Positions 39,912 through 47,117 of a stretch of 64,000 nucleotides of DNA are shown one piece after another; the first letter of the stretch is position 1; each line of letters begins with the position of its first letter. Origin of the DNA: an uncultured delta proteobacterium (GTDB lineage Bacteria; Desulfobacterota; Binatia; DP-6); the NCBI GenBank assembly GCA_963815115.1, contig CAWFFN010000012.1, forward strand, positions 416,001-480,000. The letters are read 5' to 3'. The notes beneath the pieces were generated by a model. The model was not told the origin of the DNA. It ran no database searches and was given only the letters and a program-made list of their open reading frames with translations. Position numbers and translations under genes: made by a program.

Positions 39912-41426
39912 TCAGTAGGAGAGCTGGAACTGCGTCAGGAGGACGTTCTCGTGGTCCCGTAGATGGTCGCCGAACTTCACCGGGGTGTCGAAGTCGGTGT
40001 GATACCAGTCCGCCTGGAGCTTGAAGTTCTTGTTCAGGTACCAGTTGACCCCGATCGCCCAGGTCGAGGCGTGCTGCGTCGAGTTGGGGGTCTTGGCGAA
40101 GCCGGTCGAGAAGGCCTTGGGATCGACGCCGAGGTAGCTGCCCTGGGCGGCGAGCTCGAAGGCGCCCCAGCGCCCGTTCAGCGGGTCGAAGGGGTTGATC
40201 GGGACGACTCCCTTGAAGGACGCGTCCTCGCCGGTGAGCACGTACGACGCCTGGACGAACCAGCCCTGGTTGTCGAACGTCTGGTCCAGCGTCGTCGTGG
40301 TCACCTTCTTGGTCTTGGAGTCCGTCACCTTCTCGGTGCGCTCGGCGCCGATGCTGGAGACGAGGTACTCGCCCATGAGCCCGAACGGCCCCCAGTAGTA
40401 GTAGCCCTGCGGGATGAAGCGATAGTGCGAGCCGTTCGCGAGCACCGTGATGGTGTCGGACGACGAGGTGGACGTGTCGTACGTGAAGAACGTCGAGCGG
40501 CCCGGCGTGCGGTACTGGATCTGGTTCAGGTTGTCGCCTTCCTTCGCCCGGCCGTAGTCGCCCGCGAAGCCGAAGCCGAAGCCCTTGAGCCAGTCGACGT
40601 CCGTGTTGGCCATGGGCGTCAGGAACAGGCGATAGTCGCCGTCGAAGTCCGACGTCGGATTGGAGTCCAGCAGCTGGTTGTCGAGCGCGCCGTCGAAGGC
40701 GCCGATCTGCCACTGGGCCAGACCGCCGAGGATGTCGCCCCCGACCTGGAAGCCGGTGTCGCGGTTGGGGGCGAGCTGGTTCGCGGTCGAGCGCTCGGCG
40801 AATAGCAGATCGGTCGCCGACTGCAGGCGCTCGAGGCTGAGCGGCGGCTTGAACTTGCCGCCGCGGAGCGACACCCACGGCTTGAAGTAGTTGACGTCGA
40901 AGTAGGCGTCGTAGATCTGGGTCTGGCTGTTGCCGAAGTCGGGCATGATCTTGAAGTCGAAGTACTTGTAGACCGTGCCCTCGACGATGGGCCGCACGCG
41001 GCGCAGGAAGATGCTGTCGGTGCCGGTGTCGCCCGACTCCTGCGGGAAGTCGCGGAACTGGGTCTGGAGATAGCCGCGTAGCTTCAGCTTGAAGTCGCCG
41101 CCCGGCGACTGGAGGTAGAAGCCGTCGTTCCAGCCGGCGAGGACCTTCTGCTTCTTCAACTTGTCGTCGACGATGGATTCGACCGCCGACTGGTCGAGCT
41201 GCGTCTCGACGTGTTGCTGCGGTGCGGGTGCCGTCGCCGCCCGGCTGCGCCTGGGTGCGGGCTGATCGAGCCCGTTCTCGCGGATGATCTGCTCGAGCCG
41301 GCGGACGCGCTCCTCGAGCTCCGCGCGGGTCGGCTCCTTCGCCACCACCACCCCCGGCGGTGCGACAAGCGCGGCGGTGAGGACGAGGCTCCAGAGCCTG
41401 CGTCTGTGTCGTGACCGGATGAACAT
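39912..41426 (-). CDS. OprO/OprP-family anion-selective porin
   Basis: Signal peptide, coiled coil, FLRRVRP, GKFKPPLSLERLQS, ASYVLTGE, GVNWYLN, terminal FQLSY. Confidence 0.87.
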   Translation of the reverse strand: MFIRSRHRRRLWSLVLTAALVAPPGVVVAKEPTRAELEERVRRLEQIIRENGLDQPAPRRSRAATAPAPQQHVETQLDQSAVESIVDDKLKKQKVLAGWNDGFYLQSPGGDFKLKLRGYLQTQFRDFPQESGDTGTDSIFLRRVRPIVEGTVYKYFDFKIMPDFGNSQTQIYDAYFDVNYFKPWVSLRGGKFKPPLSLERLQSATDLLFAERSTANQLAPNRDTGFQVGGDILGGLAQWQIGAFDGALDNQLLDSNPTSDFDGDYRLFLTPMANTDVDWLKGFGFGFAGDYGRAKEGDNLNQIQYRTPGRSTFFTYDTSTSSSDTITVLANGSHYRFIPQGYYYWGPFGLMGEYLVSSIGAERTEKVTDSKTKKVTTTTLDQTFDNQGWFVQASYVLTGEDASFKGVVPINPFDPLNGRWGAFELAAQGSYLGVDPKAFSTGFAKTPNSTQHASTWAIGVNWYLNKNFKLQADWYHTDFDTPVKFGDHLRDHENVLLTQFQLSY

Positions 41427-41764: not shown

Positions 41765-42823
41765 TCAGATCGCGTACTCCTGGACGAAGAGCCGCACCTG
41801 CCGCGGCGCCACGTACACGGTGTCGCCGACCTGCAGCCGCAGCTCGGCGTAGCGATCCCACGGGATGTCGACGTTGAGGACCACGCCGAACGCCTCCGAG
41901 TAGACCCGCACCTTCACCACCGGCCGCGCCGGGTTGACGTGCATCACCTTGACCTCGAGGCTGGGCCGGCCGTTCTTGGCGCGCAGGATCTCCAGCTCGT
42001 GCGAGCGGATGAACGCCGTCGCCGCACGCGACTCGTCGTGCGGATACTCGGGGTACGCCACCTCGAGGCTGCCGAGCCGTGCCCGGCCGGCCTGCACGCT
42101 GCCGTGGAAGACGTTCACGTTGCCGAGGAAGTCCATGACGAACGGGTTGGCGGGATGCTCGAAGATCTCGCCCGGCGTGCCGATCTGCTCGATGCGGCCC
42201 TTGTTCATGATCACGACGCGATCGGAGACCTCGAACGCTTCCTCCTGGTCGTGGGTGACGAACACGCTGGTGACGTGGATCTCGTCGTGCAGGCGGCGCA
42301 GCCACTAGCGCAGCTCCTGGCGCACCTTGGCGTCGAGTGCGCCGAAGGGCTCGTCGAGCAGCAGCACCTTCGGCTCCGCCGCCAGGGCGCGTGCGAGGGC
42401 GACGCGCTGGCGCTGGCCGCCGGAGAGCTGCGACGGCAGCGAGCGCTCGAGGCCTTCGAGCTGCACCAGCCGCAGCAGCTCGTGCACGCGGTCGCGGATC
42501 TGCGCCTTGGGGCGCTTGCGCACGCGCAGCCCGAAGGCGACGTTGTCGAAGACCGTCATGTGCCGGAACAGCGCATAGTGCTGGAAGACGAACCCGACGT
42601 TGCGCTCTCGCACCGCGGCATCGGTGACGTCCTCGTCCTTGTAGAGGACGGCGCCCGCGTCCGGCACCTCCAGCCCCGAGATGATGCGCAGCAGCGTCGT
42701 CTTGCCGGAGCCCGAGGGCCCCAGCAGGGCGAGCAGCTCGCCGTCCGGCACGTCGAGGCTCACGTTGTCGAGTGCCAGGAAGTTCCCGAAGCGCTTGGTG
42801 ACGTTCTTGACCGTGATGCTCAT
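41765..42823 (-). pseudogene. cysA: Sulfate ABC transporter ATP-binding subunit with in-frame TAG at 42305-42307
   Basis: [28 protein letters not shown], then QELR-stop-WLRRLHDEIHVTSVFVTHDQ in the same frame. Confidence 0.88.
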
Positions 42824-43713
42824 CCTTCTCCTCCGGTCGCGAGCATGCGCTCGTTCTCTGCCAGCTCGCGGCGTGTCTTCCACTCCAGCGTCGTCTTCAC
42901 CAGCAGGGTGACCAGCGCGAGCAGTGCGAGCACGGATGCCACGGCGAAGGCGCCGGGCATGTTGTACTCCTGGAACAGCTTCTCCACCCGCAGCGGCATC
43001 GTGTCGGTCTGTCCGGCGATGTGGCCGGAGACCACGTAGACCGCACCGAACTCGCCCATCGCGCGCGCGTTGCAGAGGATGACGCCGTAGAGCAGGCCCC
43101 ACTTGATGTTGGGCAGCGTGACGCGACGGAACAGCTGCCAGCCGCGCGCGCCGAGGCTGACGGCGGCCACCTCCTCCTCGGAGCCGAGCGCCTCCATCAG
43201 CGGGATCAGCTCGCGGGCGATCACGGGGAAGGTGACGAAGATGGTCGCCAGCACGAGTCCGGGGAAGGCGAACACGACCTTCACGTCGTGCGCGCGCAGC
43301 CACGGGCCGAAGATGCCCTGGAGCCCGAAGAGCAGCAGCAGGAACAGGCCCGCGACCACCGGCGACACCGTGAACGGCAGGTCGATGAGGGCGGTGAGGA
43401 AGGCGCGGCCGGGGAAGCGGAAGCGGGCGATCGCCCAGGCCGCGGCGATGCCGAAGATCAGGTTCAGCAGCACCGCGACCGGGGCCACCAGCAGCGTGAG
43501 CATGATCGAGTGGAGCGTGTCGGGGTCGTGGACCAGGTTGTCCCAGTAGGTTCGCAGCCCTGCCGAGAACGCCTGCACGAAGACGACCACGAGCGGAATC
43601 ACCACCAGGAAGATCATGACCGCGAGCGCCATGCCGATGAGCAGCCGGCGCACGATCGGCGGGTCCTCGTGCGCGCGCAGGTAGCCGGGGGCCGACGGTG
43701 GGTGTTCAGCCAT
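42820..43713 (-). CDS. cysW: Sulfate ABC transporter permease
   Basis: [45 protein letters not shown]. Confidence 0.95.
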
Positions 43714-44532
43714 GGTGGCGCGTGCTCCAGCGTTCGAGGAGGTTGATGGCGAAGAGGGTGACGAACGAGATGGCGAGGAGCACCACCGCGATCGCCGTCG
43801 CCTCGGCGTAGTTGAACTCCTCCAGGCGCGCGACCACGAGCACCGGCGCGATCTCCGTCCTGAACGGCATGTTGCCGGAGACGAAGACCACCGAGCCGTA
43901 CTCGCCGAGCGAGCGGGCGAAGGCCAGCGCGAAGCCGGTGATGATCGCCGGGGTGATCGAGGGCAGGATCACCTTGACGGCCGTCTGGAAGCGATTCGCC
44001 CCGAGGCACGCCGAGGCCTCCTCGACGTCGCGCTCCAGACCCTCGAGCACCGGCTGAACCGTGCGGACGACGAACGGGAAGCCGATGAAGACCAGCACGA
44101 TGACGATGCCGAGGCGCGAGTACGCGCCCTGGATGCCGAGCGGCACGAGGAAGCGCCCGAACCAGCCGCCCTTCACCAGCAGGCTCGAGTAGACCAGGCC
44201 GGCGACCGCGGTCGGCAGCGCGAACGGCAAATCGACCAGGGCGTCGAACAGGCGCTTGAGCGGGAAGTCGTAGCGCACCAGCACCCAGGCCACCAGCACT
44301 CCGAGCACGAGGTTGATGGCGGCGGATGTGAAGGACACGCCGAGCGTGAGCAGGTACGCCGCCACGCGCGCTCGGAGGAGACCGCCGCCCAGAAGGCGTC
44401 GAGCGAGAGGCTGGACGCCTTCCAGAAGCCCGCCGCCATCGGAACGAGCACCACCAGCGACAGGTAGAACATCGTGTAGCCGAGGCTGAGCGCAAAGCCC
44501 GGCAGCACCCGGCGATTCACATCGGCCGTCAT
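43706..44532 (-). pseudogene. cysT: Sulfate ABC transporter permease with a 1-nt frameshift near 44366
   Basis: N-terminus MTADVNRRVLPGFALSLG..SSERA in one frame; VAAYLL..DLPFALPTAVAG..RTVQPVL in the next. Confidence 0.85.
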
Positions 44533-44554: not shown

Positions 44555-45550
44555 TCACTTGGGCTTGTAGAAGCTGTCGAACACGCCGCCGTCGCCGAAG
44601 TACTTGGCGGAGGCGTCGTCCCAGCTCTTGGCCACGGTGGTGATGTCGAAGCGCTTGATGTCCGGGAATTGCGCGGCGTACTTCGCGGCCACGGCGGGAT
44701 CGCTCGGGCGGTAGTAGTTCTTCGCGATGATCTCCTGCCCCTCGGGCGTGTAGAGGAACTCCAGGTACGCCTTCGCGACCTCGGCGGTGCCCTTGTGGTC
44801 GACGTTCTTGTCGACCCAGGCGACGTGGGGCTGCGCCAGGATGCTGCTCGAGGGATAGACGATCTCGACCTCGCCGCCGGCCTCCTGCACCTCCAGCTTC
44901 GCCTCGTTCTCCCAGGCGAGGTGGACGTCGCCGATGTTCTTCTCCACGAAGGTGACCGTCGAGCCGCGCGCGCCGAGGTCCAAGACGGGGGTCTGCGCAT
45001 ACAGCTTCTTCACGAAGTCGAGCGCGTCCGCGTCCGAGCCGCCGTGCTCCTTCACGTAGCCCCAGGCGGCGAGGAAGGAGAGCTTGCCGTTGCCCGAGGT
45101 CTTCGGATTGGGCGTCACGATCTCGACGCCGGGCTTCACGATGTCGGGCCAGTCCTTGATGCCCTTCGGGTTGCCCTTGCGCACCACGAAGACGATCGTC
45201 GAGGTGTAGGGCAGGGAATCGTTCGGCAGCCGCTTGGTCCAGTCGGCGGGCATCAGCCCCGCCTTCGCGATGGCGTCGGTGTCGCCCCACAGCGCGAGCG
45301 TGACGACGTCGGCGTCGAGCCCGTCGATCACGGCGCGCGCCTGCGTGCCCGAGCCGCCATGCGACTGCTTGATCGAGACCTCGTTGCCCGTCTTCGCCTT
45401 GTACTGCGCGGCGAAGGCCGCGTTGATCGCCTTGTAGAGCTCGCGCGTCGGATCGTACGAGACGTTGAGGAGCTCGTACGAGGCGGCGCCCGCGGTGGAT
45501 CCGGCGAGCGCCATGGCGGCGAGGAACAGTAGTGCGGTTCGGTGGCGCAT
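44555..45550 (-). CDS. sbp: Sulfate-binding periplasmic protein
   Basis: [36 protein letters not shown]. Confidence 0.96.
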
Positions 45551-45670
45551 GGAGTCGTCTCCTCTGCCCTGATGCGTCAGGGGATGGCGGCCCCTTGCGC
45601 CGCGATGGCGCTGGGGATCCAGGTGATGTCGGACGGATTGGGGCGGCGGGACCGCCAGACCGGGTAGACG

Positions 45671-45847
45671 CTATGCGGCGATCCGGTCGGGGCGACAAAG
45701 ACCCCCCCGAGAGGCGGTGTGCTCCGCGGCCAGTGCTGCGGCGTGCACGGCGCGGGCCGCCTCGCGGAGCGCGCGGGGGTTGTCCGAGATGGAGCGCAGG
45801 TGCCGCTTCGTCCTCAGCCACCGGTTGTGCATCTGCTTCGTCGTCAT
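45671..45847 (-). CDS. 58-aa basic hypothetical protein (MTTKQMHNRWLRTKRHLRS...)
   Basis: Translated by hand, shorter than anything in the ORF track; GAGGAGGG RBS before ATG 45847; TAG at 45671-45673. Confidence 0.55.
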   Translation of the reverse strand: MTTKQMHNRWLRTKRHLRSISDNPRALREAARAVHAAALAAEHTASRGGLCRPDRIAA

Positions 45848-45920
45848 CGCTCGTCCCTCCTCGGGGGTTGGTGTGTGTCGTCGTCCTCTCGAGCCGTCGG
45901 CTCGAATTGGCGGCTCCGCG

Positions 45921-45962
45921 AAAAAACAAAGGCCCGGGAGGCTGGAGCCGCCCGGGCCTTTG
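45921..45962 (-). terminator. Intrinsic terminator in the sulfate operon leader (attenuator)
   Basis: Minus strand CAAAGGCCCGGG-c-GGC-tcca-GCC-t-CCCGGGCCTTTG followed by TTTTTT. Confidence 0.85.
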
Positions 45963-45984
45963 GTTCACACGAGGTCGTCGAGGA

Positions 45985-46080
45985 TCAGGACGTCACAGCG
46001 ACGAGCGCGACGCGACCGAAGTCACGGGTGGCCACCCGGGCCTCGATACAACAACAAGGCGTCGCGAGATGCGTTCGCAC
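45985..46080 (-). CDS. Cys-Cys-Cys leader peptide, 31 aa (MRTHLATPCCCIEARVATRDFGRVALVAVTS)
   Basis: GTG at 46080, TGT-TGT-TGT at 46056-46048, TGA at 45987-45985, 22 nt before the terminator stem. Confidence 0.75.
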   Translation of the reverse strand: MRTHLATPCCCIEARVATRDFGRVALVAVTS

Positions 46081-46088
46081 GGCGATGG

Positions 46089-46117
46089 GCTATGCCCCAG
46101 CCGTCCAGCGGTGTCAA
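46089..46117 (-). promoter_or_regulatory. Candidate sigma70 promoter for the sulfate operon
   Basis: TTGACA (46117-46112), 17-nt spacer, weak -10 CATAGC; 8 nt before the leader GTG. Confidence 0.55.
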
Positions 46118-46190
46118 GCAGCAGGCAAGAGGCGACCGCTTCCATGGCCGTGCTTTACAGCCCGGGACCCTTGTGGCCAGGCTACGCGCC

Positions 46191-47117
46191 GTGCTCCAGC
46201 GCCGAGGTGTCCTTCTCCCCCTCCTTCTCACATGCGCCCTGGTCCCGGCATGCGGCCGGGAGGATCGGAAGACCGCCGTCGCACCGCGGCCCCGGACCTC
46301 GCCGCGCACCGTACGCATCACCATGGACGCCTTGCACCAGCTCGGCGGCGTCCCTGCGGGCTGGCAGCTGACGCCGCTCCCCGGCGACGTCGAGGCCGGC
46401 CGCAGGACCTTCCAGGACCTCGGCTGCGCATCCTGCCACAAGGTCGCCGGCGAGGCGTTCGCGGACCAGGCGACGGGAGGTCCCGGGCCCGAGCTGACCG
46501 GCATGGGCAGCCACCATCCCCCGGCCTACTTCCTCGAGTCGATCCTCAATCCAGACGCCGTGCTGGTCGATGGGCCGGGCTACGTGAGCGCGGAAGGTCA
46601 CTCCGCGATGCCGACGTATCCGGATCTGCCCATCGCGCAGCTCGAGGACCTGGTGGCCTATCTGAGCTCGCTCACCTCCGGCGATCCTCACGCCGGGCAC
46701 GCGATGCCCATGGCCGGCGCGCCGTCGAGCCCGGCGGACCGGCCGACACCCCCGACGACGCCCGCGGGCAGCTTCTTCGTGCAGACCTACGACGTGCAGC
46801 CCGGGAAGGTGAAGGACTTCGAAGCCTGGTTCCAGCGCGAGGGGGCGAAGAAGTTCCTCACCGTCGACGGCCTCGTCGGCGTCGATACCTACGTCGACGG
46901 GACGCGCCCGACGCAGGCCGTGACGACGGTGTTCGGCTTCCGTGACGACGCGGCCCTGAACGCCTTCATGAGCGCCCACGATCCCGGTGCCGTCGCCGTC
47001 GGGAGTGAGTTCGACGCCTTCGTCGGGCCCCACGATCACAAGATCTTCCGCGCACCGCCGGTGTATCGCGCGCCCTCGCTGTCGACGCCCCTGCGCGTGC
47101 CCAGCCTGCGGGAATGA
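46191..47117 (+). CDS. Monoheme cytochrome c lipoprotein with an extra C-terminal domain
   Basis: LVPAC lipobox-like, CASCH, GPELT, ESILNP, SAMP axial Met; start placed at GTG 46191. Confidence 0.8.
   Translation: MLQRRGVLLPLLLTCALVPACGREDRKTAVAPRPRTSPRTVRITMDALHQLGGVPAGWQLTPLPGDVEAGRRTFQDLGCASCHKVAGEAFADQATGGPGPELTGMGSHHPPAYFLESILNPDAVLVDGPGYVSAEGHSAMPTYPDLPIAQLEDLVAYLSSLTSGDPHAGHAMPMAGAPSSPADRPTPPTTPAGSFFVQTYDVQPGKVKDFEAWFQREGAKKFLTVDGLVGVDTYVDGTRPTQAVTTVFGFRDDAALNAFMSAHDPGAVAVGSEFDAFVGPHDHKIFRAPPVYRAPSLSTPLRVPSLRE

Follow-up and report, generated by a model that had tools for sequence, protein, structure and literature searches.

Attenuation of transcription by a translated leader peptide and an intrinsic terminator belongs to the textbook mechanisms of bacterial regulation, and we know of no experimentally studied case in which this terminator-based form answers to cysteine. 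Among described systems, candidate cysteine leader peptides have been reported in Actinobacteria (Seliverstov et al. 2005, PMC1262725), a uORFC-8-2 motif lies before cysS in Rhodobacterales (Brewer et al. 2021, PMC8632094), and polycysteine leaderless small open reading frames (ORFs) form the 'Cys ribulon' of mycobacteria (Canestrari et al. 2020, bioRxiv 10.1101/834739). In this last system, regulation operates at the level of translation, the Shine-Dalgarno (SD) sequence of the next gene being buried in a very stable duplex, and the authors contrast their own case with terminator-based attenuation and present attenuation by upstream ORFs in response to cysteine as previously undescribed. We analyzed a stretch of 64,000 nucleotides (nt) from an uncultured member of the Binatia (assembly GCA_963815115.1, contig CAWFFN010000012.1, positions 416,001 to 480,000), hereafter the window, whose own numbering is used throughout. 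Ahead of its sulfate uptake operon, sbp-cysTWA, lies a leader that, judging from sequence comparison, very probably attenuates transcription in response to cysteine by way of the ribosome, in the manner of the classical four-segment trp leader, and that belongs to a class-wide family. The class of mechanism is a familiar one; the leader family itself is new.

On the minus strand, the elements follow one another in the order TTGACA, 17 nt, CATAGC, 8 nt, an ORF starting with GTG, a hairpin with a T-run, and then sbp-cysTWA. The leader comprises the following features:

46089..46117, minus strand: promoter, with the -35 hexamer TTGACA at 46117-46112, a spacer of 17 nt and the -10-like hexamer CATAGC at 46094-46089
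45985..46080, minus strand: leader ORF of 31 codons, with a GTG start at 46080 and a TGA stop, encoding the peptide MRTHLATPCCCIEARVATRDFGRVALVAVTS
46061..46066, minus strand: 5' strand of helix P1, CGCGAC, immediately 5' of the Cys codons, with its partner at 46016-46011
46048..46056, minus strand: regulatory codons TGT TGT TGT, Cys at codons 9-11
46032..46044, minus strand: segment 1, GAGGCCCGGGTGG, a near-copy of the terminator 5' arm that begins 3 nt past the last Cys codon
46021..46031, minus strand: segment 2, CCACCCGTGAC, a degenerate copy of the terminator 3' arm and candidate antiterminator strand for the 5' arm
46011..46016, minus strand: 3' strand of helix P1, GTCGCG, inside an invariant GGTCGC block
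45921..45961, minus strand: intrinsic terminator, made of segment 3 (5' arm), a loop, segment 4 (3' arm) and a T-run

A preliminary description of the window, made from the sequence alone, had pointed to these two hexamers and their spacing, to an ORF of 31 codons with three tandem TGT codons and no SD sequence, and to a strong hairpin followed by a T-run. All of these agree base for base with the minus strand. Reading the sequence directly, we find that the 8 nt after the -10-like hexamer are too few for a purine-rich SD, and the mRNA is probably leaderless or has a 5' untranslated region of a few nt. The terminator, whose stem begins about 90 nt 3' of the Cys codons, consists of the 5' arm AAAGGCCCGGGCGGC (45961-45947), the loop TCCA and the 3' arm GCCTCCCGGGCCTTT (45942-45928), which leads into TTTGTTTTTT, ending at 45921; the T-run spans 45930-45921. 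Its strength is borne out by folding: the final 62 nt of the leader have a folding energy of -33.5 kcal/mol, and the hairpin is found in both the minimum free energy structure and the centroid of the 179-nt leader, the whole of which folds with z = -2.39 (5 of 200 shuffles fold equally well). Simple consensus scans of positions 45000-47000 returned 0 promoters and 0 terminators, because the final T is missing from the -10 hexamer and the stem is not continuous; read as an uninterrupted stem, the terminator has a loop exceeding the length that the scan permits. No family of Rfam 15 (E<=1) reached its gathering score, the sole match being ctRNA_pGA1 (24.1 bits against a required 45, E = 0.11), which covers the terminator.

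Two further statements of that description hold. In this genome of 70.4% GC, TGT accounts for 1,759 of the 14,824 Cys codons (11.9%) counted in 2,302 long ORFs with high third-position GC, so TGC does dominate and the three leader codons are of the rare kind; the genome has a single tRNA-Cys(GCA) gene. The leader stretch AGGCCCGGGTGGC (46043-46031), just after the Cys codons, is identical to the terminator 5' arm AGGCCCGGGCGGC at 12 of 13 positions, and this duplication is conserved in homologues, where it covaries with the 3' arm. The shared core GCCCGGGC is a palindrome, as the claim of self-complementarity demanded. The leader had also been placed upstream of sbp-cysTWA: it does lie upstream, but sbp does not follow at once; a second small ORF of 58 codons, to which we return below, intervenes between the terminator and sbp.

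A search for sbp across 41 related genomes yielded 23 orthologous loci, our own included. A Cys run together with a terminator precedes sbp in 18 of them (17 with three to five tandem Cys codons, one with CCRC), and these leaders share the TTGACA box, the short ORF and a GGCCCGGG...CCCGGGCC terminator; the other 5 have no such leader within 1.4 kb upstream. Absence of the Cys codons from orthologous leaders had been named in advance as grounds for giving up the attenuator; they are conserved. We built a covariance model, R1, from 16 orthologous leaders. It retrieves three full-length copies from the genome itself (156, 107 and 88 bits). Within the family, 20 of 25 genomes have matches, as many as six in one genome; within the class, 40 of 151 sampled genomes do, covering 8 of its 19 families. 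An evenly sampled set of 151 genomes from the whole phylum gave full-length matches in three genomes, all from the same class, and four other genomes match the terminator part alone. Among 80 sbp loci from many phyla there was one match, in a relative of the same genus (86% identity). Of the other 79 loci, 9 have strings of the form (TGY)3 ahead of sbp; the 8 of these that were inspected have no terminator, and the strings look like chance occurrences. Comparison of these genomes indicates that the leader is a real, conserved, class-wide element.

For the comparative analysis, we used 64 matches to the model. A Cys run is present in 61 of them, and in 47 of the 48 first-round matches, counts that are partly circular, the Cys motif being held in the model by construction. 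A test that is not circular with respect to the model concerns the frame: in 57 of the 61 leaders, the Cys frame has ATG, GTG or TTG no later than 12 nt into the leader and a closed ORF of at least 20 codons, whereas each of the other two frames does so in 1 leader. The ORFs are 23-33 codons long and extend about 19 codons beyond the regulatory codons. The runs are of the types CCCC (26), CCC (24), CRC (5), CCCCC (3), CC (2) and CCRC (1); their length varies by whole codons and TGT/TGC exchanges occur, with TGT making up 171 codons and TGC 37 (n=208; 82% TGT), against the 11.9% of the genome at large. The sequence TTGAC stands at the same position in 46 of the 47 leaders having upstream sequence, and the distance from the -35 hexamer to the first ATG or GTG is 29-35 nt, with a mode of 31. 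Assuming a 17-nt spacer and a hexamer, the start codon lies 6-12 nt after the -10-like element throughout, which leaves no space for an SD; the mRNA would therefore be leaderless or nearly so. These comparative signs that the small ORF is translated are strong. Conserved Cys runs, frame, start codon and promoter spacing together support the earlier interpretation of the element as an attenuator responding to Cys starvation.

Alternative pairings are also seen in the alignment. The leader contains four segments: segment 1 is approximately a copy of the terminator 5' arm (segment 3), and segment 2 repeats the 3' arm (segment 4) in degenerate form. Helix P1 brings together GCGAY, just 5' of the Cys codons, and an invariant GUCGC after segment 2. 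The lower terminator stem has the best-conserved primary sequence of the whole leader, which is odd for a terminator unless the stem has other partners. Such partners can be located by position. For the 28 nt following the Cys run, pairing to the 3' arm has a mean energy of -24.4 kcal/mol; the most favorable window elsewhere in the same leader averages -10.9, and the stretch after the Cys run does better in 45 of 46 leaders. Profiles along the leader place the peak of 3'-arm complementarity at +3 to +6 after the Cys run (-21, over a background of -5 to -7) and a second peak, of 5'-arm complementarity, at +14 to +16 (-15.2, over -6 to -8). The last Cys codon is separated from segment 1 by 3 nt in 52 of 61 leaders.

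We then counted base pairs in the 64 leaders, aligned to a second model, with helices defined by hand; RNAalifold, run on a MAFFT alignment of 16 leaders, had recovered the terminator and one doubtful helix only. Pairing 3:4, to which the alignment was fitted, is formed in 95.8% of cells (24-68% in slid controls), with compensatory changes on both sides in 9 of 15 pairs. Pairing 1:4 is formed in 83.0% (controls 33-68%), and 8 of its 12 pairs have changed on both sides, a number reached by 0 of 500 shuffles. For 1:2, the figures are 83.7% (37-68%) with 4 of 5 pairs changed, and for P1, 76.5% (19-64%) with 5 of 6. Pairing 2:3 is formed in 81.8% of cells (35-55%). Three-way compensations are visible in individual leaders, for example L170, L173, L176, L177 and L080. 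In L170, segment 1 (CGCGAGG) is perfectly complementary to segment 4 (CCUCGCG) and segment 2 (CCUCACG) to segment 3 (CGUGAGG), while both hairpin pairings are imperfect. In L173 and L177, segments 1 and 3 contain CCCGAG and segment 4 contains CUCGGG; in L176, segment 1 has the related CCCAAG and segment 4 has CUUGGG; in L080, GGCCUGGG occurs in both segment 1 and segment 3, with CCCAGGCC in segment 4.

The genes behind the leader look like members of one sulfur regulon. Taking as regulated gene the first recognizable gene after each of the 64 elements, we found Sbp in 36 cases, outer-membrane porins (Porin_5, Alginate_exp) in 4, a CysK-like PALP enzyme in 3, a sulfate permease in 2, an SsuA/TauA-like binding protein (NMT1_2; sulfonate-binding) in 2, and an ATP-binding cassette (ABC) ATPase, a cysteine-dioxygenase-like protein (CDO_I) and a sulfatase in 1 each. 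An aldo/keto reductase, a PP-binding protein, DUF3034 and a weak PaaX-like match occur once each; 6 elements are followed by genes without a family and 4 stand at a contig end. The downstream ORFs scanned for the 64 elements include no match to a tRNA synthetase family. In many homologous loci, 18-40 nt separate the T-run from the gene start. A second promoter cannot fit into such a gap, and transcription of the gene must therefore pass the terminator.

These parts suggest the following course of events. Transcription would start at the GTG or within a few nt of it, and the leader ORF would be translated without an SD. When Cys-tRNA is ample, the ribosome would run through the three UGU codons. 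Behind a fast ribosome, P1 and the small 1:2 hairpin would re-form, or segments 1 and 2 would pair with segments 4 and 3; either way, the 3' arm would be held in a helix beside the U-run and transcription would stop at about 45921. When Cys-tRNA is scarce, the ribosome would wait on the UGU codons, which the single tRNA-Cys(GCA) should read by G:U wobble. The waiting ribosome would hold the 5' strand of P1 and cover segment 1, which begins 3 nt downstream; segment 2, some 16 nt downstream, would stay accessible and could capture the terminator 5' arm as it emerges. The 3' arm would then be without a partner, and RNA polymerase would read into the 58-codon ORF and sbp-cysTWA. In folds of the nascent transcript lacking the 3' arm, which are equilibrium estimates with an assumed ribosome footprint, pairing 2:3 exceeds a probability of 0.5 in 33 of 61 leaders when the RNA is naked, in 52 with the ribosome on the first Cys codon, in 56 with the ribosome on the last, and in 28 with the ribosome on the stop codon. 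This shift with ribosome position fits the attenuation model.

Several observations weigh against this scheme, some of them at the very locus where it was conceived. Pairing 2:3, the putative antiterminator, has modest covariation: 3 of its 11 pairs have changed on both sides, as many as in 244 of 500 shuffles, and at one pair of columns 60 of 64 leaders do not pair; the covariation score of 2:3 is 0.197, against 0.179 in shuffles, with 6 of 500 reaching 0.197. For the sbp-locus copy, the nascent probability of 2:3 is 0.62 in naked RNA and 0.63 with the ribosome on the last Cys codon. The preliminary description had called for folds with the first codons masked. In full-length equilibrium folds, which contain the terminator in 17 of 17 leaders, a sliding mask produces a switch in 7 of 17 but leaves the terminator unmoved in 10, and the sbp-locus copy keeps it at 0.99 at every position of a 30-nt ribosome mask; we did not rely on these folds, and the thermodynamic switch of the sbp-locus copy appears weak. 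In addition to the partial circularity mentioned above, 3 of the 64 leaders have a single Cys codon or C-W-C. Aldo/keto reductase and cysteine-dioxygenase-like targets are misfits for a simple logic of making more cysteine, and the sulfate operon appears damaged in cysT and cysA in its own genome. Public metatranscriptomes were uninformative on the transcription start, the 3' end and expression: 6 runs contained only 4-6% of the sampled words, and four runs gave two contigs, both from relatives, one of which passes the terminator into unlike sequence while the other includes promoter DNA.

How else may the same parts be wired? An arrangement close to that sketched in the preliminary description keeps the device and makes segment 1 the antiterminator: exposed when the ribosome waits at the first Cys codons, segment 1 would capture the 3' arm or block the 5' arm through the CCCGGG palindrome, and a ribosome translating on would cover it and let the terminator form. 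Segment 1 indeed often complements the 3' arm better than the 5' arm does, 1:4 being the stronger helix in about a quarter of 46 leaders (-36.2 against -28.0 in L037, -34.7 against -26.2 in L048); 1:4 has the clearest unbiased covariation, and the 7 of 17 equilibrium folds that switch lose the terminator with segment 1 free and regain it once segment 1 is masked. Geometry argues otherwise. With a gap of only 3 nt between the Cys codons and segment 1 (52 of 61 leaders), a ribosome on the later Cys codons would cover much of the segment, and since the ORF runs about 19 codons past segment 1, the segment is free again after a fast ribosome. Furthermore, a helix of segment 1 with the 3' arm abuts the U-run and should itself favor termination, as in oligonucleotide-induced release at terminators, and the terminator of the sbp-locus copy wins at every mask position. 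We consider this wiring improbable.

Two other hypotheses dispense with attenuation by a translating ribosome. The unit could be a free-standing small gene or RNA, producing a Cys-rich peptide or a trans-acting RNA, with neighboring sulfur genes having their own promoters. A promoter, an ORF and a strong terminator make the unit complete in itself, it is separated from sbp by about 370 nt and another ORF at our locus, and the trpL attenuator RNA and leader peptide of Sinorhizobium are reported to have functions in trans. The element is nonetheless always co-oriented with and upstream of sulfur genes, in many loci with the next gene too near the T-run (18-40 nt) for another promoter. Moreover, the conserved residues of the peptide coincide with RNA helices, EARG with segment 1 and GR(V/A)A with the P1 strand, and 59 of 63 leaders have C or U at the four-fold degenerate third position of the Ala codon, a base that pairs with the 3' arm. 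This makes an independent gene very improbable. We give equally little credence to a metabolite- or protein-binding leader, that is, a riboswitch-like terminator switch for some sulfur compound with an incidental ORF. Conserved helices and an expression platform are what such an RNA would have, and with no Rfam match it is unclassified in any case. Against it, a conserved ORF with start and stop codons is confined to a single frame (57 of 61 leaders, with 1 and 1 in the others), the sole block of variable length 5' of segment 1 steps by three and corresponds to Cys codons with TGT/TGC exchanges, and no conserved unpaired pocket or junction is seen beyond the four segments.

The surroundings of the sbp-locus copy include the following genes:

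45671..45847, minus strand: small ORF of 58 codons between the terminator and sbp, with the strong SD GAGGAGGG
44555..45550, minus strand: sbp, sulfate ABC substrate-binding protein (Pfam SBP_bac_11, 7.2e-38; NCBIfam NF008022, 422.9 bits against a cut-off of 288)
41765..44530, minus strand: cysT, cysW and cysA, with cysW at 43713..42820

Compared with three relatives (L002, L004 and L008), cysT has a 1-nt deletion near 44365 (about 44364-44366) and is read in two frames. An in-frame TAG interrupts cysA at 42307-42305 (…VRQELR*WLRRLHDEIH…), beyond which the frame of the ATP-binding protein continues. These lesions may be assembly errors, or the sulfate ABC operon may be defective in this genome. 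Upstream of the leader, a divergent cytochrome c gene begins at about 46299 on the plus strand, which places the leader in a divergent intergenic region with a promoter of its own. Just 3' of the sulfate operon, at 39912-41426 (minus strand), lies a porin of the phosphate-selective type (Porin_O_P, 1.2e-32); porins of other families are found directly behind the Cys leader in relatives.

The leader is about 370 nt from sbp at this locus, and the 58-codon ORF lies between them. This ORF contains the conserved basic block RWLR(L/T)KRHLRS and, at its C-terminus, LCR...AA, in which Cys is encoded by TGT. At least 11 related loci have it 3' of the terminator, and in one family of the class its C-terminus becomes CC..CC or CCCCCCAA. 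We found for it no Pfam family, no Atlas match and no clear excess of third-position substitutions, the latter in a rough count that includes one wrongly chosen ORF. It could be a second, translational Cys-dependent tier or encode a small protein. Folding of the spacer between this ORF and sbp does not stand out from that of shuffled sequences (z = -0.87). Within the spacer (45575-45670, minus strand), a stretch reading …SDITWIP… in another frame recurs in the extended ORF of one relative (L040), which suggests conservation at the nucleotide level.

The two other full-length copies in the genome are both C-R-C leaders:

G000:C7:1134494-1134653 (L029:1501-1660), plus strand: second copy, peptide VSSRPTALGCRCIQARD…
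G000:C5:1110908-1111065 (L028:1501-1658), plus strand: third copy, peptide VTSSFGARCRCTEARG…

The second copy precedes a cupin of the cysteine dioxygenase type (CDO_I, 1.4e-17), an unexpected target for a signal of Cys starvation, which may be a gene for thiol or sulfinate scavenging; the ORF after it looks rhodanese-like by eye. The third precedes a 130-codon ORF of no known family and then the aldo/keto reductase, which by eye has a twin-arginine-like N-terminus and a Cys-rich C-terminus. We rejected two other candidates in this genome: C9:1012572, considered as a fourth copy, is not of the same kind, and a weak match at C9:653641 (23 bits) has no Cys ORF. In a relative from another family of the class, one contig of 30 kb (G215:C62) carries four leader copies (L172, L173, L176 and L177), preceding Sbp, a CysK-like enzyme and ORFs without an assigned family; it looks like a sulfur island under common control.

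We may go one step further and hypothesize a fail-safe design, which we find rather doubtful as a whole. Segment 1 would be a back-up 5' arm, and both free folds, 1:2 with 3:4 and 2:3 with 1:4, would terminate; read-through would occur only when a Cys-starved ribosome masks segment 1, and the second Cys-containing small ORF would make the regulon a two-tier one. If true, this design would explain why the cross pairings have been kept more perfect than the hairpins. It would also imply a sulfur regulon read by the ribosome, including outer-membrane porins, sulfonate and sulfatase genes, and standing in for a CysB-type protein regulator across an uncultured class.

In its simpler four-segment form, the attenuator suggests that bacteria of this class probably gauge their cysteine supply through the speed of the ribosome. 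It predicts a sulfur-scavenging regulon in an uncultured high-GC soil lineage, composed of sulfate- and sulfonate-binding proteins, CysK-like enzymes, porins, a sulfatase and a cysteine-dioxygenase-like gene, and flags dozens of unannotated small ORFs overlooked by gene callers. With a compact model of about 160 nt and 64 natural variants aligned, the family lends itself to a study of how rare tandem codons, a leaderless start and four segments set the threshold at which a response to sulfur starvation begins.

The preliminary description had presented a terminator-based form of this kind as not known for a sulfate ABC operon in such a lineage. In full-text literature outside subscription journals, we found no terminator-based Cys leader for sulfate or sulfur-uptake genes, and hence no counterexample. 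The nearest relatives in mechanism are the trpL, hisL, leuL, thrL and pheL leaders of E. coli and Salmonella. Like them, the present leader combines a short ORF containing tandem codons for the sensed amino acid, four segments with predicted pairings 1:2, 2:3 and 3:4, and an intrinsic terminator before the structural genes. When the layout is set beside the coordinates of the trp leader, the regulatory codons lie just 5' of segment 1 in both, and segment 2 starts about 16 nt after the codons. The differences are as clear: the amino acid sensed here would be cysteine, and the targets serve to take up and scavenge sulfur, where the classical leaders govern operons of biosynthetic enzymes; there is no SD, the start lies 6-12 nt past the -10 element and the ORF continues for about 19 codons beyond the regulatory codons; and the host is an uncultured high-GC class, with no sequence relationship according to Rfam, in which no match was found.

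The mycobacterial Cys ribulon resembles our family in its short ORFs, leaderless there and probably so here, with consecutive Cys codons before several cysteine or sulfur loci per genome, and in ribosome pausing at Cys codons as the proposed sensor (Canestrari et al. 2020). Several leaders per genome before sulfur genes are likewise found here, three in this genome and up to six matches in relatives. The output differs, as does the phylum: here it is a strong intrinsic terminator with a U-run, and the conserved partners of the leader segments are the arms of that terminator and not an SD. The uORFC-8-2 motif (Brewer et al. 2021) likewise has tandem Cys codons and a terminator stem followed by a U-run, and is predicted to attenuate by way of the ribosome. 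It has two Cys codons, mostly UGC, at positions 14-15, is a prediction only and another structure, and is confined to cysteinyl-tRNA synthetase in alphaproteobacteria, with no sulfur-uptake regulon. Finally, the candidate leader peptides of Actinobacteria share with ours short ORFs with Cys-codon runs before cys operons; no conserved terminator hairpin accompanies those peptides, and Rho is suggested (Seliverstov et al. 2005), whereas in the family described here the terminator is the best-conserved part.

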